From an uncultured Bacilli bacterium (GTDB lineage: Bacteria; Bacillota_I; Bacilli_A; RF39; UBA660): a stretch of DNA of 64,000 bases. Of this stretch, positions 47 to 49,494 are shown in pieces (the stretch's first letter is position 1; the number at the start of each line of letters is the position of its first letter). The stretch covers positions 105,545 through 169,544 of the forward strand of contig CALVIX010000001.1 in NCBI GenBank assembly GCA_944331895.1, in the 5' to 3' direction. The notes beneath the pieces are model-generated. The model worked only from the letters and a program-made list of their open reading frames with translations, was not told the origin of the DNA and made no database searches. The position numbers and the translations under genes were made by a program.

Positions 47-874
47 CTACTTATAAGTTTTTTTCTGACAATGCTTACAATAATATGTTCCTCGTCCACC
101 TATAAATTCTTTCATAACCGGATTATGACAAATAGGACATTCATTCTTCCCGTGAATTGATAATTCATGTTGAAACCTCCCATGAACCCCTTCACTTGCT
201 TCAAAACTTCGAATGGTCGTTCCACCTTGTTCAATTGCCTTTTGAAGAACAAGTCTTGTCATATCGATAATAGTACGCAACTGTCTTTTTGATAAAGCGT
301 TGCTTTTTGTTTTAGGGTGAATATGTGATAAAAATAAAATTTCATCGTCGTAAATATTTCCTATTCCACTAATGATCGTCTGATCCAACAAAGCTGTTTT
401 GATTGGAATATTTTTTTTACTAAACTTTTTCTTTAAATACGATTCCGTTAAATTTTCATCCCATGGTTCTAACCCAAGAGATAAAAGTGGTTCTACCTGC
501 ATAACCTCATTTTTCGAATATAAATACATCCTACCAAATTTTCTCGTATCATGATATCTTAACTCTGTATCATCTGAAAAGAGAAAAGATACGTGTTCAT
601 GCTTTGTTCGTAAATCGTTTTTATTTTTTAAATTATATTTTCCTTCCATTCTTAAATGACTCAATAAAACATCATCGTCTAAAATAAATAAAAGCCATTT
701 CCCTCTTCTTTGAATATCGCGAATCGTCTGCGATTTCATCCTCTTTTGAAATTCTGAGATTGACGGATGTGCTACAATATTTGGATATGAAATAACGACG
801 TCGACAATCTTTTTCCCCAACACTTTTGTCTTTAATATATTTTTAACCGTTTCGACTTCTGGTAATTCCGGCAT
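47..874 (-). CDS. mutM: Formamidopyrimidine-DNA glycosylase (Fpg/MutM)
   Basis: The N-terminus is MPELPEVETV (catalytic Pro2/Glu3). The C-terminus has a zinc finger, CPICHNPV...YYCKHCQ. Length is 275 aa. It overlaps the xth stop by 32 nt. Confidence 0.9.
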   Translation of the reverse strand: MPELPEVETVKNILKTKVLGKKIVDVVISYPNIVAHPSISEFQKRMKSQTIRDIQRRGKWLLFILDDDVLLSHLRMEGKYNLKNKNDLRTKHEHVSFLFSDDTELRYHDTRKFGRMYLYSKNEVMQVEPLLSLGLEPWDENLTESYLKKKFSKKNIPIKTALLDQTIISGIGNIYDDEILFLSHIHPKTKSNALSKRQLRTIIDMTRLVLQKAIEQGGTTIRSFEASEGVHGRFQHELSIHGKNECPICHNPVMKEFIGGRGTYYCKHCQKKTYK

Positions 875-1634
875 CTTTCGTCACCTCGATTTCTAAACCG
901 ATTGGGCAATGATCACTACCAAGTACATCAGAATAAATGAGTGCATCTTGGATCTTTGATTCCAATCTAGATGACACTAAAAAATAATCGATTCGCCAAC
1001 CAATATTTTTCTCACGCACGCCTTTCCGATAACTCCACCAAGAATATGCGTCCTTCTTATTTGGATAAAGAAAGCGAAATGTATCGGTAAAGCCAGCTTG
1101 TAAAAGTTCGTCAAACTTACCTCTTTCTTCATAAGTAAAGCCAGCATTCCCAATATTTTGCTTCGCATTGCGAATATCAATTTCGTTGTGAGCTACATTA
1201 AAATCGCCACAGATCACCACATTTTTTTTACAATCTAATCGTTTCAAGTAAGAACGAAATAAATCCTCAAATCGCATACGTGATTCCATCCGTTCTAGCC
1301 CTCGTTTCACGTTTGGAACATAGACATTTACCAAATAAAAATCTTCATACTCAAGCGTAATCATTCTACCTTCATCATCATATTCTAAGTCTAATCCACC
1401 ATAAAAAACCGATATCGGTTTGTTCTTTGTATAAATCACCGTCCCAGAATAACCTTTTCTAACAGCAGGATATAGATATCTTTCATATCCCTCAGGTAAA
1501 AAGTCAAATTGATCTTCCGTCGCTTTTACTTCTTGCATGCAAAAAATATCAGCATCAACTTCTTCAAAAAATTCTTTTAATCCTTTCTTTAAACAGGCGC
1601 GAATTCCTGCGACATTCCAAGAGACAATCTTCAT
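843..1634 (-). CDS. xth: Exodeoxyribonuclease III (AP endonuclease, Xth/ExoA family)
   Basis: The N-terminus MKIVSWNVAGIRA, the motif CMQE, and the C-terminal GSDHCPIGLEIE are typical of the ExoIII/APE1 fold. Confidence 0.9.
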   Translation of the reverse strand: MKIVSWNVAGIRACLKKGLKEFFEEVDADIFCMQEVKATEDQFDFLPEGYERYLYPAVRKGYSGTVIYTKNKPISVFYGGLDLEYDDEGRMITLEYEDFYLVNVYVPNVKRGLERMESRMRFEDLFRSYLKRLDCKKNVVICGDFNVAHNEIDIRNAKQNIGNAGFTYEERGKFDELLQAGFTDTFRFLYPNKKDAYSWWSYRKGVREKNIGWRIDYFLVSSRLESKIQDALIYSDVLGSDHCPIGLEIEVTKDAGITRSRNG

Positions 1635-1635
1635 A

Positions 1636-2373
1636 CTATTCCTCCTCGTTCATACGATATGGGAATGGAAATACTAATTCAACCATTTTTTCCAACATAG
1701 GTGTTACATGCGAAAAATATAAGTCAATAGACCCAATTTCAGATGAATTCTGCTCTAATTTAAGAGAGGATGCTAAAATATCCCCCATATCGATATAATC
1801 ACAAGGATACTCCTTGAAAAGTAGATCCATCAAAATAGGATAATGTGTACACCCTAATACGATATGTTCCACTTTGTTTTCTATCATTGGTCTTAGATAT
1901 AAACTAATTGCATCCTTACATTCCGACGAGTCCATTTTTCCGCTTTCGATCAGAGGTACAAACTTTGCACAAGCGACCGTTGTCGTATTCTGATATAAAG
2001 CATCATCAAAGACATGACTATGAATCGTCATCGGTGTTGCCAGCACTCCAACAGAAGAAAACTCCCTTTCTTTCAAATACGTAATTGTTGGAGAAATGAT
2101 ATCTATCATGGGGATAGAATACTTCTTTTTTAATTCTCCATATATATTAGTACTAATGGTTCCACAGGCAATAATAACAAAATCAACCCTTTGTTCTATA
2201 AAATAATCCATGATACCAGATGCATATTCCATCAGTTGAGACTTTGTTTTTTCTCCGTATGGTAAATGTTTTGTATCTCCATAATATAAATAATCATGAT
2301 TAGGATATCGTTTTACAATCTGTCTTAAAACCGTTAATCCTCCCAAGCCTGAATCGCATACTCCTATTTTCAT
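1636..2373 (-). CDS. murI: Glutamate racemase
   Basis: It has MKIGVCDSGLGGLTVL and the Asp/Glu racemase motifs IIACGTIS and VLGCTHYP. An RBS GAGGAAG lies upstream. Confidence 0.9.
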   Translation of the reverse strand: MKIGVCDSGLGGLTVLRQIVKRYPNHDYLYYGDTKHLPYGEKTKSQLMEYASGIMDYFIEQRVDFVIIACGTISTNIYGELKKKYSIPMIDIISPTITYLKEREFSSVGVLATPMTIHSHVFDDALYQNTTTVACAKFVPLIESGKMDSSECKDAISLYLRPMIENKVEHIVLGCTHYPILMDLLFKEYPCDYIDMGDILASSLKLEQNSSEIGSIDLYFSHVTPMLEKMVELVFPFPYRMNEEE

Positions 2374-2412
2374 GTTTTAAACTTCCTCTCATTATTTTTT
2401 ATTATATCAAAA

Positions 2413-2438
2413 AAAGTCAAAAATTAAAATTTGACTTT
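2413..2438 (-). terminator. Rho-independent terminator after the 154-aa membrane protein gene
   Basis: A 9-bp stem AAAGTCAAA/TTTGACTTT has an 8-nt loop. On the minus strand it is followed by TTTTTTTGAT. Confidence 0.5.
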
Positions 2439-2903
2439 CTATTGAGCTACAAGTTTTTGAACACTATACCCTAACGCTGCTACGATAAGTAGTCCTGTGA
2501 CAATTGGATTGATGAGAAAATTCCAAACCTTACCAAAACCAGAAATATTTAAGACAACCTTCCCAACGATGATATCCGAGTTAATGGTCGTTCCTCCCAT
2601 ACCATTATCTTTCTCTAACGTTACATTTTGATCAGTTACAGCTGTTACTTTTCCAACATCTATAAAAAGACCATTTTTATAAACGACAACGTCATCAATC
2701 GCATAGGTATCAACTTCTTGTAGGATGACAAAGTCTCCCATTTTCGCCTCAGTACTCATCCCATCTACACCAATTTCCATCATAGTAAATCCAGATAATT
2801 TAGGTATTTCTTCAGCATCATTTAATTTTTTAAAATTAAAGAACAATCCTAAAAAAATAATAACACCGACGAATACACCTATAATAATTTTGATAACTTT
2901 CAT
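2439..2903 (-). CDS. Membrane-anchored hypothetical protein (single N-terminal TM), paralog of the next gene
   Basis: A hydrophobic N-terminal TM (IIIGVFVGVIIFLGLFF) is followed by a roughly 120-aa extracytoplasmic domain. The RBS is AAGGGGGA. The motif EIGVDGMSTEAKMGDFVILQEVD weakly resembles signal-peptidase I but cannot be confirmed. Confidence 0.5.
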   Translation of the reverse strand: MKVIKIIIGVFVGVIIFLGLFFNFKKLNDAEEIPKLSGFTMMEIGVDGMSTEAKMGDFVILQEVDTYAIDDVVVYKNGLFIDVGKVTAVTDQNVTLEKDNGMGGTTINSDIIVGKVVLNISGFGKVWNFLINPIVTGLLIVAALGYSVQKLVAQ

Positions 2904-2915
2904 ATTTTCCCCCTT

Positions 2916-3398
2916 TTACACCACATATTTGATAGATGTTTTATGCAAAAAATATGTGAATACAACAGTCGCTAAAAGACCTATTGTTAACGGATGCGTT
3001 ACTAAAGTCCACCATCTCATACCATCATGAAGACAAAAGGCCAATGACCCAATAATATCTCTATGTGGAACGAAACTCTCATTGATAAGACTCGTTTCCT
3101 TTCGAGGAAACACCCCATACTCTGTCGTATCGACAACGCGTGCAACATCATGATGCATTCCATTTTGATACATGATAATATCACTAATATTATAAGTATC
3201 TTTCTCATGCACAAGCATCATATCTCCAATTTTCACTTGGTCTCCAAAACCATCGTAGGTCACTTCCATCAACTTATAATTGCCTACTTGAAAATCCCAA
3301 CTAGGATCTTTTGATTTCATGTGATTTGTATATAATCCTAATGTAATAACAGATAATATCAGCGCTAACACAACCCCCTTGATTGTTTTTTTTAGCAT
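2916..3398 (-). CDS. Membrane-anchored hypothetical protein, paralog of 2439..2903
   Basis: The architecture is the same as 2439..2903: an N-terminal TM, then a conserved block VKIGDMMLVHEKDTYNISDIIMYQNG versus MGDFVILQEVDTYAIDDVVVYKNG. The likely start is the ATG at 3398 (MLKK) with RBS GAGGGA. The six-frame start at 3410 has no RBS. Confidence 0.5.
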   Translation of the reverse strand: MLKKTIKGVVLALILSVITLGLYTNHMKSKDPSWDFQVGNYKLMEVTYDGFGDQVKIGDMMLVHEKDTYNISDIIMYQNGMHHDVARVVDTTEYGVFPRKETSLINESFVPHRDIIGSLAFCLHDGMRWWTLVTHPLTIGLLATVVFTYFLHKTSIKYVV

Positions 3399-28175: not shown

Positions 28176-28193
28176 AAAGGACATATGTCCTTT
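28176..28193 (-). terminator. Terminator: perfect 18-bp palindrome after the 530-aa gene
   Basis: AAAGGACATATGTCCTTT is followed by TTTTGATG on the minus strand. Confidence 0.65.
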
Positions 28194-29784
28194 ATTGTGT
28201 TGTAAATAAACGCATCATCAAATTCGTTAAATTTTGTTGAATTTGTTGTTCTTGTTCGTCTGTAAGATCATCTATCGAAACAGCATTATCAACATCAATC
28301 TTTATATCTGTTCCGTCTTGAATAGTTGCTGAACTTGTAGCATTGATACTTAATAAATTAGAACCTTGACTAGAAAGATCAAAAGTAAAACTTGATGTTG
28401 CCTGATCTTTACTTTCGTATTGATTATCAAATACAATCTTTAATGAAGTAGATCCGTCCTCTAATGAGAATGTATAAGTAATTCCTTTATCACTCGTAAC
28501 TAATTGTAAATTACCTAAATCCTGATTTTTTCCATCCTTCATAACAGCTGTAAATCCGTTATCATTTTTTACAATTTCTGCTTCAAACGTTGTTTGTTCA
28601 TCCGTCAACATACGAATCACGTCATTCTCCCCAAATGTATAACGCAATGTCGTAATTTGTTCTTTCAAATTATATTGTGCCTTATTATAATCAAAGTCAT
28701 CATAATCTGTTACCCATTCCACAATAGAAAGATCGTATTGTACTGCAGAAGACATCAATCCATCCGTATATGCAGACACTAAAATTTTCGTTTCTTTCGC
28801 TTTATTTTGTTGAATTGTCGGTTCATATGATTCAAACTCTGAATAAACTGAATTTATAATATCATTTGCTTTTTTATCATTCTTGATATCTTCAACGACA
28901 GCTATCATAATTTCACTTGTATTGTGAGAATCTAATACCAAAGAAATTTTATCTACATTTTGTTTTTTACCATCTATTGTAGCTTCTGCTTTTGTCTTTA
29001 TAAAATAATCTGATTTTAAGTGTTTTTTTACAGCATCTACGATAAAATTATATAAGTATGTCTGGTCTTCGACATCTGCTGATTGATTTATCGTCTCAAA
29101 CAGATTAAAGTCACCTGTATCGAGATAATAATCGTAGATACCCTTTAGTAATACATATCCCTTTTTATTTTGATTTACAAATGTAACATTGAGGAATGGA
29201 GATTGATTCAATGTTGTGTTCCAATCTAATACCATCTCTTCTTTTTCTTGATCCACTTGATAAGTATATTGATGTTCCATTTTATTTAAATTAGCAATTA
29301 ACGTTTGATACATTTCATAAGTAGGATCCATCATAGTAAAAAGATCAGATTGAATTGTAAGGTTAGCCTTCCCCGTAACCGTATATGATTTTCTCGATTC
29401 TGGTGCATGTTCTAAAAGTGGCTGATATAAATATTCTATGCGATCTTCTAGTTGGGTTGTCGCTCTTACAAACATCGCTTTCTTGTCAAAATGAAAATAA
29501 TAAGTAAACGCTCCTAGAACGATACAAAGTGCCCCTAATAGGATAACCCAAATAAATTTTTTCTGGTGCTTTCCAAAGTCTCCTACCTTTTTGACTTGAT
29601 CTTTTTCTACATCTCCACTATTTTCAGAAATCATAACATCTTCTTTGATTGCGTCCTGTCTTTCTAAAGCTTCTAACTTTTCCTTTTGAACTTCTACTGT
29701 TTCTAAATTAACTGGTGTAACTTTACTCTTCTTTTTTCTCCCTCTCATAAGAATACTCCTTTTTTCTACAAATTTTGTACACAC
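28192..29784 (-). CDS. Membrane-anchored hypothetical protein (77-aa cytoplasmic N-terminus, one TM, roughly 430-aa extracytoplasmic domain)
   Basis: The TM is FIWVILLGALCIVLGAFTYYF. I recognised no motif. It has its own terminator and an upstream tandem repeat. Confidence 0.5.
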   Translation of the reverse strand: MCTKFVEKRSILMRGRKKKSKVTPVNLETVEVQKEKLEALERQDAIKEDVMISENSGDVEKDQVKKVGDFGKHQKKFIWVILLGALCIVLGAFTYYFHFDKKAMFVRATTQLEDRIEYLYQPLLEHAPESRKSYTVTGKANLTIQSDLFTMMDPTYEMYQTLIANLNKMEHQYTYQVDQEKEEMVLDWNTTLNQSPFLNVTFVNQNKKGYVLLKGIYDYYLDTGDFNLFETINQSADVEDQTYLYNFIVDAVKKHLKSDYFIKTKAEATIDGKKQNVDKISLVLDSHNTSEIMIAVVEDIKNDKKANDIINSVYSEFESYEPTIQQNKAKETKILVSAYTDGLMSSAVQYDLSIVEWVTDYDDFDYNKAQYNLKEQITTLRYTFGENDVIRMLTDEQTTFEAEIVKNDNGFTAVMKDGKNQDLGNLQLVTSDKGITYTFSLEDGSTSLKIVFDNQYESKDQATSSFTFDLSSQGSNLLSINATSSATIQDGTDIKIDVDNAVSIDDLTDEQEQQIQQNLTNLMMRLFTTQ

Positions 29785-29855
29785 GATAAAATCATATATA
29801 CCTATAATACTTCTACAATCATTCTATCACATTTCTATCACATTTAAAACAAAAA

Positions 29856-29880
29856 AAGCTCATTTATAACAAATAAGCTT
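29856..29880 (-). terminator. Rho-independent terminator after the 184-aa repeat protein gene
   Basis: The 10-bp stem AAGCTTATTT/AAATGAGCTT includes one G-U pair. The loop is GTTA, and TTTTTTTG follows. Confidence 0.65.
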
Positions 29881-29900
29881 CTACCCATCGTATTTCATTT

Positions 29901-30455
29901 TTAATATTCTTCTGCAGCCAATACTACTCCGTTTTGATCAAACTTAATCGATTTGAAAATTGGCCATTTTTTTGTGTCTTTTTCCACTTCGGCATTTTCT
30001 TTCGCTTCCGTTAAGGCAAAAGGATTTGAGACATCTTCTAAATTGGGTAATTTCTCTTTTTCTGTGGCACTGTGGTCAGCAACTACCACTCCATTTTCAT
30101 CAAATTGATAAAGTGGCATTGGTTTCGATTCTAATTTTGTCGTTGCCTCCATCAATACTCTTCCATTCTTATCAAACTGATATACATTTGAACTAGAACT
30201 TGTTGCCACGTTAGAATTCTTGTCGGTCAGTTCATCTTTTTTCTCTTTAAACATCAACGACATTTTGGTAGCTTGTTCCATAAATTTTACACATGCATCA
30301 TCCGTATATCCTTTATGTAAAACTTCTTGTATATCTTGTTTGTTAAAATAAATTGTTTTATGACTAGTCAAATTCCCCTCTGGATATTTCTCAGCAACAT
30401 AGTCATATACATAGTTTGTGTTTTCTATGCTAATAGGAAAATATCCAATAATCAT
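29901..30455 (-). CDS. Hypothetical protein with three Y/K-x-F-D-x-N-G-V-V repeats
   Basis: The repeats are YQFDKNGRVL, YQFDENGVVV and KFDQNGVVL, spaced about 30-45 aa apart. There is no TM and no signal peptide. The ATG at 30455 lacks a convincing RBS, so the start is uncertain. Confidence 0.45.
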   Translation of the reverse strand: MIIGYFPISIENTNYVYDYVAEKYPEGNLTSHKTIYFNKQDIQEVLHKGYTDDACVKFMEQATKMSLMFKEKKDELTDKNSNVATSSSSNVYQFDKNGRVLMEATTKLESKPMPLYQFDENGVVVADHSATEKEKLPNLEDVSNPFALTEAKENAEVEKDTKKWPIFKSIKFDQNGVVLAAEEY

Positions 30456-30640
30456 AACAACTTGATCATCTTTGCCGAAATTGAATATTTTAATAACCTC
30501 TCTTCATCTGCAATATAAATATCCATAGCAAATACCTCTCTATCTTTTCACATTATAACATTTTATTATCCTATATGTAAATGAAATTCATGAAGAAGGT
30601 GTTGGTTTTTTAGTTTTTTATATTATTAAATCGATGAAAA

Positions 30641-30658
30641 AAAGTGCATCCTGCACTT
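30641..30658 (-). terminator. Rho-independent terminator after the CHAP gene
   Basis: An 8-bp stem AAAGTGCA/TGCACTTT has loop TCC, then TTTTTTTC on the minus strand. Confidence 0.65.
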
Positions 30659-30665
30659 TCTTTTA

Positions 30666-43989: not shown

Positions 43990-44019
43990 AAAGCTATATT
44001 CTAATAGCTTTTTTATCGA
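43990..44019 (-). terminator. Terminator after gap
   Basis: The stem AAGCTAT/ATAGCTT has loop ATTCTA and A/T-run flanks. It separates gap from pgk. Confidence 0.55.
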
Positions 44020-45023
44020 TTCAAACTCATTAAGTATTCTGCCGTACGTACCATTTGTGCTGTGTAGCTCATTTCGTTATCGTACCATGCAACAACTTTG
44101 ACAAGTTGACGTCCATCCACTTCTAGGATATCTGTTAATAACCCATCAACTAAACTTCCATAGTGCGATCCGATAATATCGCTTGATACAATAGGATCCA
44201 TCGTAAATCCGATCGTTTCATTTGCGTTATTTTTGAACGCTTCATTTAATTCCTCTACTGTCGTATTACGTTTTAACTCAACAGTTAGATCAACAACAGA
44301 TCCAGTTGTTGTTGGAACGCGCAAAGCACTTCCATCCAACTTTCCTTTTAAGTTAGGTAATACCAATCCTACAGCACTCGCTGCTCCAGTACTACTTGGT
44401 ACAATATTAGCAGCTCCCGCTCTACCACGGCGCGCTTTAATTCCTTTTTTATGAGCGACATCTAAAATAGATTGATCGTTCGTATACGCATGTACTGTCG
44501 TCATATACCCTTTTACAATTCCGAAGTTTTTATCGAGAATGTTTGCTACAGGAGCAAGACAGTTTGTCGTACAACTTGCAGCACTAATAACCTCTTCTGT
44601 TCCATCTAATGTCTCATGGTTTACATTATAAACAATCGTCTTCATATCTCCTTTACCAGGCGCAGAAATAATAACATGTTTTGCTCCAGCAGTGATATGT
44701 GCTATCGCATCTTCTTTCTTTACAAACTTACCAGTACATTCAAATACGACATCAATTCCAAGTTCTCCCCATGGTAATTTCGTCGGATCCATCTCAGAAT
44801 AAATTCTTACTTTGCGATCTTTCACGATAATATTTTCTTCGTCATGAGAGATTTCATTTACGCGATAATTTCTATGAGATGTATCGTATTTTAATAAATA
44901 AGCTAACTGTTCAGCATCTGTTAAATCGTTGATGGCAACAATCTCGTATGCTGGATTTTCCTCTAACAAACGAAAAGCCAAACGTCCGATTCTTCCAAAT
45001 CCGTTAATTGCTACTTTAATCAT
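44013..45023 (-). CDS. gap: Glyceraldehyde-3-phosphate dehydrogenase
   Basis: INGFGRIGR is the NAD-binding motif. ASCTTNCLAP contains the catalytic Cys. Confidence 0.95.
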   Translation of the reverse strand: MIKVAINGFGRIGRLAFRLLEENPAYEIVAINDLTDAEQLAYLLKYDTSHRNYRVNEISHDEENIIVKDRKVRIYSEMDPTKLPWGELGIDVVFECTGKFVKKEDAIAHITAGAKHVIISAPGKGDMKTIVYNVNHETLDGTEEVISAASCTTNCLAPVANILDKNFGIVKGYMTTVHAYTNDQSILDVAHKKGIKARRGRAGAANIVPSSTGAASAVGLVLPNLKGKLDGSALRVPTTTGSVVDLTVELKRNTTVEELNEAFKNNANETIGFTMDPIVSSDIIGSHYGSLVDGLLTDILEVDGRQLVKVVAWYDNEMSYTAQMVRTAEYLMSLNR

Positions 45024-45105
45024 AATTTCCTCCTATCTTCTACGCTTTCATTGTAGCGCAACAAAATTAGTCATGTCAATAGAATAGACTTTCTATTGAC
45101 ATAGA

Positions 45106-45432
45106 TTACTTATTGCTATCCATTACTTCTATCTTAATGTTCTCCACATTTGCCGTTGCATCCTTGATGCCGACAGACATATCTTTGATAGTTTTATCTA
45201 TCTTCTTATACTCGTCATTTTCAAATCCTACAAAATAAATCGTTTCTATTTGATCATGATGAAACAAGAGTAATTGATTAGAGTTTATAATTCCTTCAGG
45301 ATATAAACAAGCAGTATAATCATAAATTGTAGATTCTTTTGAATCTACTGGACAGTATCCCACAATCATAATTTCTTTGGTTGCACCCTTTAATTTAACG
45401 ACACTTCCTATAGGTAAAAACTTTTCTCTCAT
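45106..45432 (-). CDS. Small hypothetical protein (DUF4176-like, 108 aa)
   Basis: The N-terminal LPIGSVVKLKG motif fits the uncharacterised DUF4176 family, which is common beside Firmicutes toxin/T7SS loci. That assignment is from memory and not verified. It has a 1-nt stop-start overlap with the upstream gene. Confidence 0.4.
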   Translation of the reverse strand: MREKFLPIGSVVKLKGATKEIMIVGYCPVDSKESTIYDYTACLYPEGIINSNQLLLFHHDQIETIYFVGFENDEYKKIDKTIKDMSVGIKDATANVENIKIEVMDSNK

Positions 45433-46091
45433 TATATATCCCTCCTATTTGGTAATTTTTTTGTAGAAAAATCACTATATATGATTACTTTTACTGGAAT
45501 ATTCAATTTTTCTTTTAATTCATTTTCTAACTTTTGATTGATATCATGACAAAATTTTTTTTGCTGATAATGAAGTTCATCCGACCAATCATATCTAACT
45601 CCAATAACAAGTGAATGATTGAGAGCAAAATATTGAGGACTAGGAGGTCCAAAATTCGTTTCAAATGTTCCTTTTATTCCACGTCTTTCTTCTCTTATGA
45701 CTTTTTGAAATGTACTAGCTATAAACTTCATATCTCTTTGTTCTATTTGAAACATATTGTTTTTAGCTCTCGAATTTAGATAGTTTCTCTCTTCTTCTGT
45801 AAGTCGTTCTAAATAAATATTATTTCTTAAATAGTAATACTTGTTTCCTATAAATGAATAGTATTGATAAAAATCTTGTTTGAAAAGTGGTATTGCCCGA
45901 AAATAATTTTCATTTTTTTGTAGTATCTGATCGTACTGTTGTACTCCTAATAAATTTATATATTCATTTAAAAGGAGACGATAAATGGTAGCTTGTCGAA
46001 AATAATCCATCTTTTCATCTTTCGATAAACCATCTAGATGAAAATCAATGTCTGTTGTGCATAAATTTTTTTCTGTTATATAATATCTCAT
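45432..46091 (-). CDS. Hypothetical protein (219 aa), candidate immunity protein
   Basis: The start is at MRYYITEK (46091) with a strong RBS AAAGGGGA, 13 nt after the upstream stop. It is Y/N/K-rich with no TM. Confidence 0.4.
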   Translation of the reverse strand: MRYYITEKNLCTTDIDFHLDGLSKDEKMDYFRQATIYRLLLNEYINLLGVQQYDQILQKNENYFRAIPLFKQDFYQYYSFIGNKYYYLRNNIYLERLTEEERNYLNSRAKNNMFQIEQRDMKFIASTFQKVIREERRGIKGTFETNFGPPSPQYFALNHSLVIGVRYDWSDELHYQQKKFCHDINQKLENELKEKLNIPVKVIIYSDFSTKKLPNRRDI

Positions 46092-46104
46092 ATTTATTCC
46101 CCTT

Positions 46105-47550
46105 TTATTTAATAGATGCGGAAGAAATGATAAATTCAGCATTTGCTAAATTATCCCAAGACACATAATATTTATTTCCATATGAGCTAACCACTAATCC
46201 ATCGCGTTCATCATCATCGATAACTCCCGTCACATATACAGCATGAGCTCCATCCGACAAAGAAAGGACTCTAGCATTACCATTTTCTTCATCCATTGGA
46301 ATAAAGTTAACGTTATCTAATGTGTCCTGATAGACACTTAAAGTTACGGACTGATCTTGCAACAAATGTGATTTTACCTCGTGTTTTACGCTAAGTATAT
46401 TTTGATATTTTTCACTTTCTGGAAGGATATCTTCATACTTCTCAAGACCTTCCTTTTTGCGTACTAAACATTCCACATCATAACTTAATGATTTATTCTT
46501 CGATTTCAAAAACAAATCAACAAGTTCTTCATTAGTTCCTAACACATCAGAAAGGTATTGCTGATTTTCAGTATCTGCATCAACAATTCGATATTTTCCG
46601 TTTTTTTTCTGAAATAACTCTCCACCATTTTCAACGTCATTAACAAATATATATATATCTGTTAATAGTAACGCATCATTTAATGTTCCATCTTCATTCT
46701 TAAGAGGGTATCCAAAAATACGTTCAAATGCTTCAGGATTATCTTTAAATTGATACATAATTGCACTCACAATTGCCGCATAAGAGCAAGCCCCCGTTTC
46801 ATTGATCATGCTCATCACTTTGCTTATATCCTTCTGTTTAAATCCTAAATCGTGAATATAGTTGTATATCTGTTTATGAATTTTCAAATCAGGGTTTTCT
46901 AAAATATCCGTCACAACGCCTTGATCGACTCCATAGTTTCCAAATGTACCTTCTGACAGTTCAAAAAAACTCTGTACTCCACCTTCCCAATCAGTCACTT
47001 TTGCATTTGTATGAAATATTTTATTTCCCATTTGATCGATATAACTATTTATAAGCTGTCCCAACCGTGTCGACTCATCGACATGCAAATATTGTAAGTT
47101 AGGAACTCCTGTTTCCTGGAATGTTTTACCAAATACTTTATCAAAAAACTGATCGACATGCTCTACAGAGATCACCGCATTTGTCCTTTCAAGTAGCATC
47201 TGACCAAAATTACCATCAGTTAACAAATCATATAAATAAGCACCTGGTCCCATCAATGTAGAAATAGCATCATTAATTTTTTCCCCTTTTTCTACTATTT
47301 TCAATGTTTGTTGTTTTAAATTTTCAATATATTCCTCTTCTTCTTCAGTAGGACCTATATCTTCGTATATAATTTCTGATGATCTTGGCTTATTACTTAT
47401 AAAACTTGATAGTTCTTCGTCTTGATTTTTACCTTCTTTTTTATAATTGTCCGGAATAATAGAAGAAACTGCAACCTTTTTGGCAGTAGAATTTTTAATA
47501 GGTATCTTTACATTGACATCTGTATTAGCTTTAATCTTAGATACTGACAT
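46105..47550 (-). CDS. Protein with a C-terminal C39-like (papain-fold) cysteine peptidase domain, no signal peptide
   Basis: The candidate catalytic Cys is in ETGACSYAAIVSAIMYQF. The candidate His is in DGAHAVYVTGVIDDDERDGLVVSSYGNKYYVSWDNL. Both resemble the C39/C39-like pattern. The N-terminal 250 aa are uncharacterised. Confidence 0.5.
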   Translation of the reverse strand: MSVSKIKANTDVNVKIPIKNSTAKKVAVSSIIPDNYKKEGKNQDEELSSFISNKPRSSEIIYEDIGPTEEEEEYIENLKQQTLKIVEKGEKINDAISTLMGPGAYLYDLLTDGNFGQMLLERTNAVISVEHVDQFFDKVFGKTFQETGVPNLQYLHVDESTRLGQLINSYIDQMGNKIFHTNAKVTDWEGGVQSFFELSEGTFGNYGVDQGVVTDILENPDLKIHKQIYNYIHDLGFKQKDISKVMSMINETGACSYAAIVSAIMYQFKDNPEAFERIFGYPLKNEDGTLNDALLLTDIYIFVNDVENGGELFQKKNGKYRIVDADTENQQYLSDVLGTNEELVDLFLKSKNKSLSYDVECLVRKKEGLEKYEDILPESEKYQNILSVKHEVKSHLLQDQSVTLSVYQDTLDNVNFIPMDEENGNARVLSLSDGAHAVYVTGVIDDDERDGLVVSSYGNKYYVSWDNLANAEFIISSASIK

Positions 47551-47611
47551 GCGACCCCTACTTTCTAATCTAAACTAATTATAACATATATATAGTATCG
47601 AAACAAATAAA

Positions 47612-47629
47612 ACACCTCAAAAGAGGTGT
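47612..47629 (-). terminator. Terminator after the uridine-kinase-like gene
   Basis: ACACCTC-AAAA-GAGGTGT is followed by TTTTATTTGTTT on the minus strand. Confidence 0.65.
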
Positions 47630-47713
47630 CTACAATGACGATTAAAAATAATTCATAATCACTAACAAACCATATATTTTTTTAATCATTCTATCATTTT
47701 ATCGAGAAACTTA

Positions 47714-49375
47714 TTACTCATAAAAGCAACTATTTCCAATAAATTCTCTAAGTACAGAATCATCCGGAACTTCTTCACTCGGAATCGGTAAAAAATTTCT
47801 TAGAAAGTTGATCAAACGGAGGGCTTCCGGATATACTGGATCATTTTCTGATACTGAGAACAACAACGGCTCCGCATATGTCTTTAATACGCCAAGTTCA
47901 TAGACGAGAGCTGAATTGATAATCATATCAGCATCATCTTGGAATGGGAAAATATATCTCTCTTCTCCATAACTGATCTTTTCCCACATTTTCAATGTAT
48001 CAGCCGCATTATAATTACGGAATTTATTATCGCGGATAATACGTCTTAACTTTCTCGTATCGCTCGTGTGAATATGATTATGATTATCGATATTAAGTTG
48101 CGTCAAAGGACTAATATATATTTTGAATTTATTTCTTCTTGGAATAGAGATCGTCAAGTCTTCATTCAACGCGTGTAATCCTTCGATAATAATAATATCA
48201 TCTTCATCCATCTGCAACCATTTTTTACGATATTCTCTTTCTCCTGTCATAAAATTGTATTCTGGAAGCAATACTTTCTCACCATCAAATAATTTAACTA
48301 AATGACGATTCAACAGATCGATATCGACCGCTTTTAAAGATTCTAAATCCCTTTCTCCGTGTTCGTCCAATGGTGTTTTATCGCGGTTAATAAAGTAATC
48401 ATCGATCGAAATCTGATGTGTACGCAACCCTTTGCTTTTCAAATAAATTTCCAATTTTTTCGAGGTTGTCGTCTTTCCACTAGATGATGGCCCTGCAATC
48501 AATATGATTTTAATATTTTTCTTATTATCATATACTCGGTCGGCAATCTCTGCAAGTTGTCCATTATAATATGCTTCACTAATTCGAATTAAATCTCCAT
48601 ATTTACCAGTAGAGACCACTTCATTTAAATCAGCAGCATTGCTTATCTTTAAAATACGTCCCCACTTTGTATAATCTAAGAATGTATCAAATAACATCTT
48701 GTGATGTTTGTAATCTAATGTACATTCAGGATTATAGATATCAGGACAAGAAAGAACAAAGCCATTATCTTTAATATAAGTCAATTTAAAATCGTCGATC
48801 GTTTTTGTACTATACGCTAGTTCTCCATAGAAATAATCATAAACATCATCCAAACGATATAAATTAACATAAGTATTACTAATGTACTTCAATACATTTA
48901 CTTTATCCATTCTTTTCTTCTTGCGAAAATATTTAATGGCATCGATTCTAGAGACACTTACCTTTGTAAACTTTAAATCTTCAGCAACAATTTCATGCAT
49001 TTTTGATTCGATTTTTCGCAGGATAGGTTTATCGATATCACAATTCCTAATTTCACAATAAACACCTTTATCGATAGAATGTTCTACGATTACTTCCGCT
49101 TCTTCTCCTAGCACCTGTTTTACGGCTATGATTAAAATAAATTGTGCAGATCTCGTATAAATTGTATTCCCTATCACACTACTACGATCGTAAAAGTCAA
49201 TATCACTTTTTTTTGTAACTGGTTCAGCAAGTCCCATAACGTCATTATCAACTTTAGCAACTAAAATAGGATAATTATAGTACTTCTTAAAGCTATCACT
49301 AATTTCTAACAAAGAAGTATCTTCCAAAAATTCTTTTGTCTCGATACCTCTATAATTTACCTTTACCATTTTCAT
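47714..49375 (-). CDS. Uridine kinase-family P-loop NTPase fused to an N-terminal TGS-like domain
   Basis: Walker A is IAGPSSSGKTTT, then the uridine/cytidine-kinase-like region ...IIIIEGLHALNE. The N-terminal 240 aa resemble the ThrRS TGS/second-additional domain. The start is the ATG at 49375 (MKMVKV) with RBS AAGAGGGA. Confidence 0.7.
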   Translation of the reverse strand: MKMVKVNYRGIETKEFLEDTSLLEISDSFKKYYNYPILVAKVDNDVMGLAEPVTKKSDIDFYDRSSVIGNTIYTRSAQFILIIAVKQVLGEEAEVIVEHSIDKGVYCEIRNCDIDKPILRKIESKMHEIVAEDLKFTKVSVSRIDAIKYFRKKKRMDKVNVLKYISNTYVNLYRLDDVYDYFYGELAYSTKTIDDFKLTYIKDNGFVLSCPDIYNPECTLDYKHHKMLFDTFLDYTKWGRILKISNAADLNEVVSTGKYGDLIRISEAYYNGQLAEIADRVYDNKKNIKIILIAGPSSSGKTTTSKKLEIYLKSKGLRTHQISIDDYFINRDKTPLDEHGERDLESLKAVDIDLLNRHLVKLFDGEKVLLPEYNFMTGEREYRKKWLQMDEDDIIIIEGLHALNEDLTISIPRRNKFKIYISPLTQLNIDNHNHIHTSDTRKLRRIIRDNKFRNYNAADTLKMWEKISYGEERYIFPFQDDADMIINSALVYELGVLKTYAEPLLFSVSENDPVYPEALRLINFLRNFLPIPSEEVPDDSVLREFIGNSCFYE

Positions 49376-49494
49376 ATGCTCGATCCCTCTTATTCTATTC
49401 ATATTCATTTTACCAAAGAAATAGTATTTTGTCACATCTTTTTTTGTATATATTCTCTTTCTTGAAACTACAATAAAATAGAAAGGGTGAAAAT

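Follow-up and report, generated by a model that had tools for sequence, protein, structure and literature searches.

What kind of system is encoded by three small genes that separate gap from a nucleoside kinase gene in the genome of an uncultured Bacilli bacterium? The window, namely the whole stretch of 64,000 nucleotides analysed here (contig CALVIX010000001.1, positions 105,545 to 169,544), carries at this place a cassette of three co-directional minus-strand genes (45106-47550) with tight junctions, whose products have 481, 219 and 108 residues. A preliminary description, made from the DNA letters alone, had pointed out this layout, with a Cys and a His in the largest protein, no signal peptide and two small genes downstream, and all these elements are present. 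It had further proposed that the trio resembles a toxin, immunity and accessory island and may be cargo of a type VII secretion system (T7SS), and both proposals gain from what follows. The cassette probably encodes a polymorphic toxin of the type VIIb system (T7SSb), with a papain-like domain that would cleave an essential cytosolic target, together with an immunity protein of 219 residues and a DUF4176 chaperone.

The 481-residue protein has no significant counterpart in sequence searches of Pfam, NCBIfam, PHROG, PADLOC or PDB, and a word-indexed protein search retrieved only four relatives. An exhaustive HMMER search returned 519 representative homologues, 260 of them at E <= 1e-10, and all of them match residues ~190-481 only. 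Used as a profile against the PDB, this domain gave only a non-significant alignment, limited to the GH motif, to the C1 peptidase Lpg2622 (E about 1). The genome-collection scan for relatives worked with an alignment of five sequences; the single protein as query retrieved no relative, and the full family alignment holds no conserved stretch long enough to serve as a query. In 126 of the 152 homologues that were listed the domain lies at the extreme C-terminus, in proteins from 246 to 3000+ residues long. The N-terminal regions to which it is joined are mutually unrelated; no recurrent Pfam domain is found in them among the 54 homologues scanned, and an N-terminal hydrophobic signal or signal peptide is missing from all 152. 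A C-terminal domain carried by unrelated, signal-less N-terminal regions thus describes a polymorphic-toxin architecture. The C-terminal ~290 residues are filed here as a new family of papain-like fold, absent from Pfam and NCBIfam, whose members come mostly from uncultured gut Bacilli and Mycoplasmatota-like metagenome-assembled genomes (MAGs). One homologue, P0012, carries two copies of the papain-like domain.

Open reading frames (ORFs) were called in 11 other domain-bearing loci and searched with the window proteins. A homologue of the 219-residue protein is encoded directly 3' of the domain in 10 of the 11 (L001, L003, L004, L005, L007, L009, L010, L011, L012 and L013); no downstream homologue is present in L006, where the domain is internal, or in L008, where the contig ends. 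Identities between these homologues and the window protein range from 30 to 46% and track the toxin domain: in L001 the immunity homologue is 32% identical and the toxin domain 33%, while in L013 the immunity homologue reaches 46% and the toxin-domain match has an E of 2e-48. The family is marked by two motifs, YFY[IL]RNN[IL]Y[IL]ERL and YGP....[FY].AP.N[AS]L[VI]IG[VL]RYD; the word-indexed search found only three homologues, and no significant match was obtained in Pfam, NCBIfam, PHROG, PADLOC or PDB. The protein is predicted to be soluble and cytoplasmic, since it has no transmembrane segment, signal peptide or lipobox, and an immunity protein of this kind argues for a cytosolic rather than a cell-wall target of the toxin. 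Judged from sequence and position, the 219-residue protein behaves as a cognate immunity protein and would neutralise its neighbour.

The 108-residue protein is a small DUF4176 protein of the Ltc type. It matches Pfam PF13780 with an E of 3.2e-28 and 98 bits (cutoff 25) over profile positions 1-72 of 74, in agreement with the resemblance to DUF4176 remarked upon earlier, and it matches chain A of the crystal structure 9DCS (9dcs_A) with an E of 2.9e-10 over residues 4-80; its length falls in the 'small' size class, 70-130 residues, of the family (PMC12478183). The 9DCS protein is the small DUF4176 (MQE10_09270) of Streptococcus intermedius GC1825, which is encoded just 3' of the TelD immunity gene and is needed for TelD stability and for its export by T7SSb; DUF4176 is an experimentally defined family of T7SSb toxin chaperones, its small members are most often encoded next to immunity genes, and the characterised toxins that depend on DUF4176 have a cytoplasmic site of action (PMC12478183). 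The order toxin, immunity gene, small DUF4176 gene is found also in L003, L004 and L013; L001 has it too, interrupted by one additional gene. Chaperones of this family bind a disordered, amphipathic segment of their cognate toxin, and the window protein may accordingly bind the N-terminal region of the 481-residue toxin.

A T7SS locus lies elsewhere in the window (28192-38702), and its EssC gene (34044..38702, FHA and FtsK domains) is about 7.4 kb from the cassette. It also encodes a YukD-like ubiquitin-fold protein, four helical proteins of 214, 184, 100 and 83 residues, a CHAP protein, a second DUF4176 protein and a 530-residue protein with a single transmembrane segment. T7SS genes flank the toxin in five of the 11 other loci: EssC and YukD homologues adjoin it in L007, L009, L010 and L012, and WXG100 genes precede it in L013. 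The systems of L009 and L012 belong to the same subtype as that of the window, with homologues of the 214-, 184-, 100- and 83-residue proteins; in L012 (6242-10873) the toxin fills the effector position that belongs in the window to the CHAP protein, behind the same set of four helical-protein genes, and in L009 (7319-10954) it comes directly after essC-yukD. Genes for Lap/WXG100-like targeting factors are found near the toxin in L013, L010 and L012. By guilt of association the domain family is T7SS cargo, as was suspected from the outset, and the DUF4176 family points in the same direction; the window copy would be an 'orphan' cassette, whose product could be exported by the EssC of the window.

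As for the enzyme itself, conservation was counted over 163 aligned copies of the domain. Cys255 (GACSYAAIVSAIMYQF, codon 46786-46788) is conserved in 160 of 160 and His436 (GAHAVYVTG...VVSSYG, codon 46243-46245) in 158 of 158, so that the pair singled out in the preliminary description is invariant in the family, to a degree far beyond chance; Asn304 is conserved in 160 of 160 and Asp298 in 158 of 160. Position 250, five residues before the Cys, is Asp or Asn in every case, and positions 455-458, after the His, form the motif [SN][ST][WY]G, which we take to mirror N175-S-W-G of papain (family C1). The domain signature can be written [DN]xxGxCxYA ... D ... N ... GH ... [SN][ST][WY]G. AlphaFold2, run on the toxin domain with an alignment of 22 sequences, gave a model with a predicted local distance difference test (pLDDT) value of 86.9 and a predicted template modelling (pTM) score of 0.88, where Cys255 would open a long helix (254-267) of a helical lobe and His436 a strand (435-445) of a C-terminal beta lobe; a Cys at a helix N-terminus and a His at the start of a strand amount to papain topology. 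The Foldseek list for the PDB is made nearly entirely of papain-like thiol peptidases, all of them weak matches (IdeS/Mac-1, staphopain, cathepsins, calpain, bleomycin hydrolase and 8SSM), and cathepsin- and AvrRpt2-annotated proteins are among the top matches, also weak, in the viral library. On this confident predicted topology, a papain-like fold in general is assigned to the toxin domain.

The preliminary description had gone further, placing the protein among C39 or C39-like peptidases; the papain-like part of that claim holds for the predicted topology, while C39 membership is not supported. The protein has no Pfam match to these families at E <= 1, Peptidase_C39_2 is matched by only two of 22 family members (best E 0.049), and the C39 toxin of a contact-dependent inhibition (CDI) system, 8ssm_A, is only sixth in the Foldseek ranking (E 0.026, TM-scores 0.19/0.34), which leaves C39 as a distant possibility only. 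The papain-like toxin families Tox-PL1, Tox-PL-2 and Tox-PLDMTX (PF15644, PF15643 and PF15645) give no match at E <= 1 with this protein, nor at E <= 10 with family members. The domain is presumably a peptidase with a cytosolic target.

A further feature of the family is a YG[VI]DQG motif, found ~45 residues before the Cys in about half of the members (here YGVDQG, residues 206-211, 46918-46935), its Gln being conserved in 81 of 133 aligned copies; in the remaining half Y.Y.QA...N.A....P.P.F takes its place. The YG[VI]DQG motif is possibly an auto-processing site, a lid or a substrate-mimic segment.

Differently from the toxin domain, which recurs throughout the family, residues 1-189 are common only to P0002, a protein 81% identical over its whole length (allele L021). 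AlphaFold, with an alignment of two sequences, gave pLDDT <50 for residues 1-66 and 117-189; residues ~1-66 look disordered in the model, and helices are predicted with low confidence at 69-87, 104-123, 129-140 and 161-178. A poorly ordered N-terminus, as modelled, fits an intrinsically disordered, chaperone-dependent segment like that of Ltc clients, and residues 1-189 may contain the export signal and the site for DUF4176 binding. Homology of the N-terminal 190 residues to other family members or to the CHAP protein of the window was considered and set aside as not significant. The toxin start, MSVSKIKAN, resembles those of the window CHAP protein (MSEKIKTS) and of the L009 toxin (MSEIPKIKSS), and an MSxxKIK-like start is present in about 20 of the 152 listed family members against about 4 expected from control windows; as a lead only, it may be an N-terminal export motif of non-LXG type.

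Taken together, these elements suggest an orphan T7SSb effector cassette that would have been gained by recombination into the kinase-gap intergenic region, in one lineage of a Candidatus Fimihabitans-like gut bacterium. The 481-residue protein would be a polymorphic antibacterial toxin, whose C-terminal ~290 residues may act as a papain-like cysteine hydrolase with a Cys255/His436 dyad, most likely as a peptidase on an essential cytosolic protein of the target cell, and whose N-terminal ~190 residues, poorly ordered and lineage-specific, would hold the export information and the chaperone-binding site. The 219-residue protein would bind and neutralise the peptidase in producer and sister cells, and the DUF4176 protein would stabilise the toxin in the producer cytoplasm until its export by EssC. 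The identity of the cassette is well supported, by the C-terminal polymorphic domain, the linkage of the 219-residue protein, the DUF4176 match and an empty site in conspecifics; peptidase chemistry, target and export by the EssC of the window are what we infer from these.

Several observations weigh against this reading. None of the Foldseek matches is significant, the best having an E of 8e-3 and a TM-score of about 0.3, and the protein matches no Pfam peptidase family at E <= 1; the assignment to a fold class therefore depends on topology, on motifs and on weak matches that agree with one another. The equivalent of papain Asn175 is Ser455 and a third catalytic residue is not evident, the invariant Asp298 preceding the His in sequence. 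As regards export, the protein has no LXG domain (PF04740) in Pfam/NCBIfam at E <= 1 and no Lap or WXG100 partner genes adjoin the cassette, the upstream side being occupied by the kinase gene and a terminator, so that the route is deduced from the relatives and from DUF4176. In the T7SS locus of the window no Pfam match to EssB/YukC, EsaA or WXG100 was found among the scanned proteins (the 83-residue one was outside the scan); the locus looks pared down, with the same gene set found again in L009 and L012, and it may not be functional. With two sequences in its alignment, the N-terminal model may for that reason alone be of low confidence. Finally, the domain is internal in 26 of the 152 listed homologues, a placement that fits a processing peptidase as well as a toxin, and P0005, a protein of 5914 residues from a gut Bacilli MAG (L008, 265-16804), has five copies of the domain, each with Cys, His, Asp and Asn intact. 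Such a number is unusual for a terminal toxin module and suggests multi-warhead or processing roles in some members.

Part of this evidence would suit the same cassette and delivery with a thiol enzyme other than a protease, such as a glutamine deamidase, a transglutaminase, an acyl or amide transferase or a peptidoglycan amidase of the NlpC/P60-CHAP type. All of these chemistries are within reach of the papain fold, and several of them are used by polymorphic toxins (Tox-PL1, deamidase-like; Tox-TGase; Tox-NLPC/P60; PMC3482391); the lack of a significant structural match, the atypical third triad residue, the invariant Asp298 and Asn304 between Cys and His, and the CHAP protein in the T7SS locus of the same window are all compatible with it. 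However, the top weak neighbours are endopeptidases and not NlpC/P60, CHAP or transglutaminase proteins, and the [SN][ST][WY]G motif after the His mirrors N-S-W-G of papain, in family C1. A cell-wall target, moreover, is at odds with an immunity protein devoid of signal peptide, lipobox and transmembrane segment, and with the cytoplasmic action of the characterised DUF4176-dependent toxins (PMC12478183). A non-protease enzyme is accordingly held to be improbable, though it is the most serious competitor. The internal and multiple copies described above would instead be accommodated if the domain served in the main as a peptidase for auto-processing or release, or for the maturation of other T7SS cargo, with the 219-residue protein as its regulator or substrate; papain-like domains with releasing roles have been described (Zhang et al., PMC3482391), and the StbD-CT toxin auto-processes (bioRxiv 10.64898/2026.05.07.723447). 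This is unlikely, because the domain is terminal here and in 126 of 152 homologues, where it is the only recognisable globular domain and has nothing downstream to release, because its tight, co-varying linkage to a dedicated downstream gene is an immunity signature, and because the cassette is strain-variable.

A small mobile insert of three genes without mobility genes, encoding a toxin without signal peptide and a DUF4176 protein that matches one PHROG of unknown function, could also be read as an intracellular, non-secreted system using a cysteine peptidase, whether toxin-antitoxin-like, an anti-phage module or a phage remnant. Against it stand the absence of PADLOC or PHROG matches for the toxin and the 219-residue protein, a plasmid DNA search without a match, relatives that lie within T7SS loci, and a domain joined, in the manner of secreted polymorphic toxins, to variable N-terminal regions of great length; DUF4176, moreover, has a functional tie to T7SSb export (PMC12478183). 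A non-secreted system is very unlikely. The preferred reading, a T7SSb toxin with immunity protein and chaperone, could be extended to a bolder one, according to which the cassette would be the founding example of a widespread family of T7SSb cysteine-peptidase toxins (>500 sequence clusters), each with its own soluble immunity family, killing by site-specific proteolysis of an essential cytosolic target and exported here, free of LXG and Lap, through an MSxxKIK signal and DUF4176 by a pared-down T7SS. As a whole, this extension is rather less likely than not.

How the cassette came to its place can be read from closely related genomes. The window kinase protein is 98% identical to a protein of a Candidatus Fimihabitans intestinipullorum MAG and to those of many other contigs, and in all seven conspecific contigs compared the site is empty, with a kinase-gap distance of 108 bp and identical flanking synteny from EzrA to Spo0A; a housekeeping orthology group with conserved synteny next to gap, considered in the preliminary description, is ruled out by these empty sites. 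The insert stands in place of a 27-bp terminator hairpin of the empty-site strains and carries its own intrinsic terminator for the kinase gene (47631..47610), as well as, ahead of the toxin gene, TGTTATAAT (47586..47578), which resembles an extended -10 promoter and from its letters may be the toxin promoter. This regulatory stretch is conserved in the 81% allele L021. In L021 (1-340 vs window 47541-47880) the upstream sequence differs, and the part homologous to the window starts at ...ATGAGTAATAA, where the window has the last kinase codons and the stop (TAT-GAG-TAA, vs TAC-GAG-TAA in the strains with an empty site); the position of the left junction is uncertain within these last codons, and recombination may have taken place inside the kinase 3' end. 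Neither flanking direct repeats nor mobility genes were found at the insert ends, and a plasmid DNA search gave no match; the insert probably arrived by recombination, homologous or illegitimate, between related strains of low GC. Guanine-plus-cytosine (GC) content, proposed earlier as a check, gives a weak signal, being 0.33 in the toxin gene and 0.27 in the immunity gene against a window mean of 0.34.

Within the cassette (Table 1) the 219-residue gene starts at 46091, 13 nt past the toxin stop, and is preceded by an AAAGGGG ribosome-binding site; its ORF can be extended to 236 residues from 46142, and gene callers and homologues favour the shorter start. The 108-residue gene overlaps the preceding stop by one base (TAATG) and is preceded by AGGAGGG. 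None of the three proteins has a hydrophobic segment or a signal peptide (maximum Kyte-Doolittle 19-residue mean <=1.02), as had been stated for the toxin. Gap (44013..45023) lies downstream of the cassette, while the gene for the PRK-family nucleoside kinase (47714..49408) and that for ClpP lie upstream.

Table 1. Coordinates of the cassette, its parts and the insert in the window
Feature	Position	Strand	Basis or remark
Toxin gene, 481 residues	46105..47550	-	ORF; unique N-terminal region and C-terminal papain-like (predicted) Cys/His domain
Toxin N-terminal region, residues 1-189	46984..47550	-	no signal peptide, no LXG match
Toxin domain, residues 190-481	46108..46983	-	papain-like predicted fold
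Immunity-like gene, 219 residues	45432..46091	-	homologues directly 3' of the toxin domain in other loci
Small DUF4176 gene (Ltc-type T7SSb toxin chaperone), 108 residues	45106..45432	-	PF13780 match
Insert-borne regulatory DNA	47578..47631	-	terminator scan and direct sequence reading
Strain-variable insert, ~2.6 kb	45105..47713		empty sites L014 and L018 aligned to both window junctions
12+6+12 palindrome, resident in the gap promoter region	45073..45102		not insert DNA

The 12-bp palindrome beside the cassette is real, its arms being exact (ATGTCAATAGAA-6 nt-TTCTATTGACAT; 0 matches in 100 shuffles). Its interpretation as the end of the island is rejected: it overlaps the -35 element TTGACA (45079..45074) of a near-consensus gap promoter, TTGACA-18-TACAAT (45050-45102), and is kept, with two mismatches, in the strains devoid of the insert, which have the gap promoter as well. 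The palindrome may serve as an operator in the control of glycolytic genes; upstream of gap the window has no cggR-like gene.

Other features concern the T7SS locus and its host. The CHAP protein (415 residues, 30666-31913, minus strand) has no signal peptide and could be an effector or an EssH-like secretion-assisting hydrolase (PMC13059805). The second DUF4176 ORF (29901-30455, minus strand, 184 residues) matches Pfam from profile position 18 and has a ~130-residue Ser/Glu-rich tail; translation may begin further upstream, from a non-ATG codon, unless the protein is a divergent 'small plus tail' form. A gene for a Spo0A-type regulator (receiver and Spo0A_C, E 5e-40; 38709-39479) is located directly upstream of essC, and a small acid-soluble spore protein gene is found near the kinase gene in conspecific contigs (L014, 3337-3549). 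Although NCBI places Candidatus Fimihabitans in Mycoplasmatota incertae sedis, the lineage has the appearance of a Bacillota-type spore-former in reduced form.

The kinds of T7SSb toxin known to have been characterised comprise nucleases, NADases, lipid II phosphatases, lipases and membrane-depolarising proteins, and a T7SSb protease toxin was not found in the searchable literature; proteolytic antibacterial toxins have only just been demonstrated, for CDI and for the type VI secretion system (T6SS), with StbD-CT and Cpe1. If the reading is true, a papain-fold toxin with its own immunity family would be a new killing chemistry in T7SS biology, and its abundance in uncultured animal-gut Bacilli would offer a handle on strain competition in a poorly known clade. 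A non-LXG N-terminus accompanied by a small DUF4176 protein provides a simple natural case for minimal substrate specification in T7SSb. For annotation, two families of 'hypothetical proteins', the toxin domain and the immunity protein, can now be named, and the insert is a clean presence/absence marker between strains.

Among known systems, TelD-TipD-DUF4176 of S. intermedius GC1825 (PMC12478183) has the same order of toxin, immunity and small DUF4176 genes, and in TelD as in the 481-residue toxin a poorly ordered region lies outside the toxin domain. TelD differs in having an LXG domain and Lap partner genes, whereas the window toxin is non-LXG and has no adjacent Lap genes; its toxin domain is membrane-depolarising, whereas that of the window is predicted to be a papain-like Cys/His hydrolase; and TipD belongs to the DUF443 membrane proteins, whereas the window immunity-like protein is soluble and unannotated. 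The C39 toxins StbD-CT (CDI) and Cpe1 (T6SS) cleave GyrB/ParE, and small cytoplasmic immunity proteins block both (bioRxiv 10.64898/2026.05.07.723447), so a cysteine-peptidase toxin with cytoplasmic immunity has a precedent. StbD-CT/StbI (8SSM) and Cpe1 have in common with the window system that an inter-bacterial toxin ends in a thiol peptidase of the papain superfamily, as predicted here, that a neighbouring gene encodes a small, cytoplasmic immunity protein and that the toxin acts in the cytosol of the target, as presumed here. They are bona fide C39 domains of ~140 residues, found in Proteobacteria and delivered through CDI or T6SS; they have a Cys-His-Asp triad, and their target in GyrB/ParE is Gly-Gly. 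Conversely, the window domain has ~290 residues, fails Pfam C39 (PF03412) and C39_2 (PF13529), would be delivered by T7SSb and belongs to Bacillota-type bacteria, and the immunity families are unrelated.

Tox-PL1, Tox-PL-2, Tox-PL3 and Tox-PLC39 (Zhang et al. 2012, PMC3482391) are papain-fold Cys/His domains placed at the extreme C-terminus, sometimes linked to T7SS and sometimes acting as internal processing peptidases; differently from them, the window domain has no Pfam match at E <= 1, another signature and a dedicated, uncatalogued immunity family. The best structural neighbours, though weak (E >= 8e-3, TM-score about 0.3), are IdeS/Mac-1 (C66), staphopain (C47) and the cathepsins and papain (C1). 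These clan CA endopeptidases have, like the window domain in its model, a Cys at a helix N-terminus and a His on a strand of the beta lobe, and S-S-W/Y-G resembles papain N-S-W-G; they are Sec-secreted or lysosomal and made with pro-peptides, whereas the window domain has extra helical elements and a Ser for the third-residue Asn. The type of system, T7SSb toxin-immunity-Ltc, is therefore a known one, while the toxin domain family and the immunity family are new, as are the host clade and the fact that the window copy has neither an LXG domain nor Lap partner genes.

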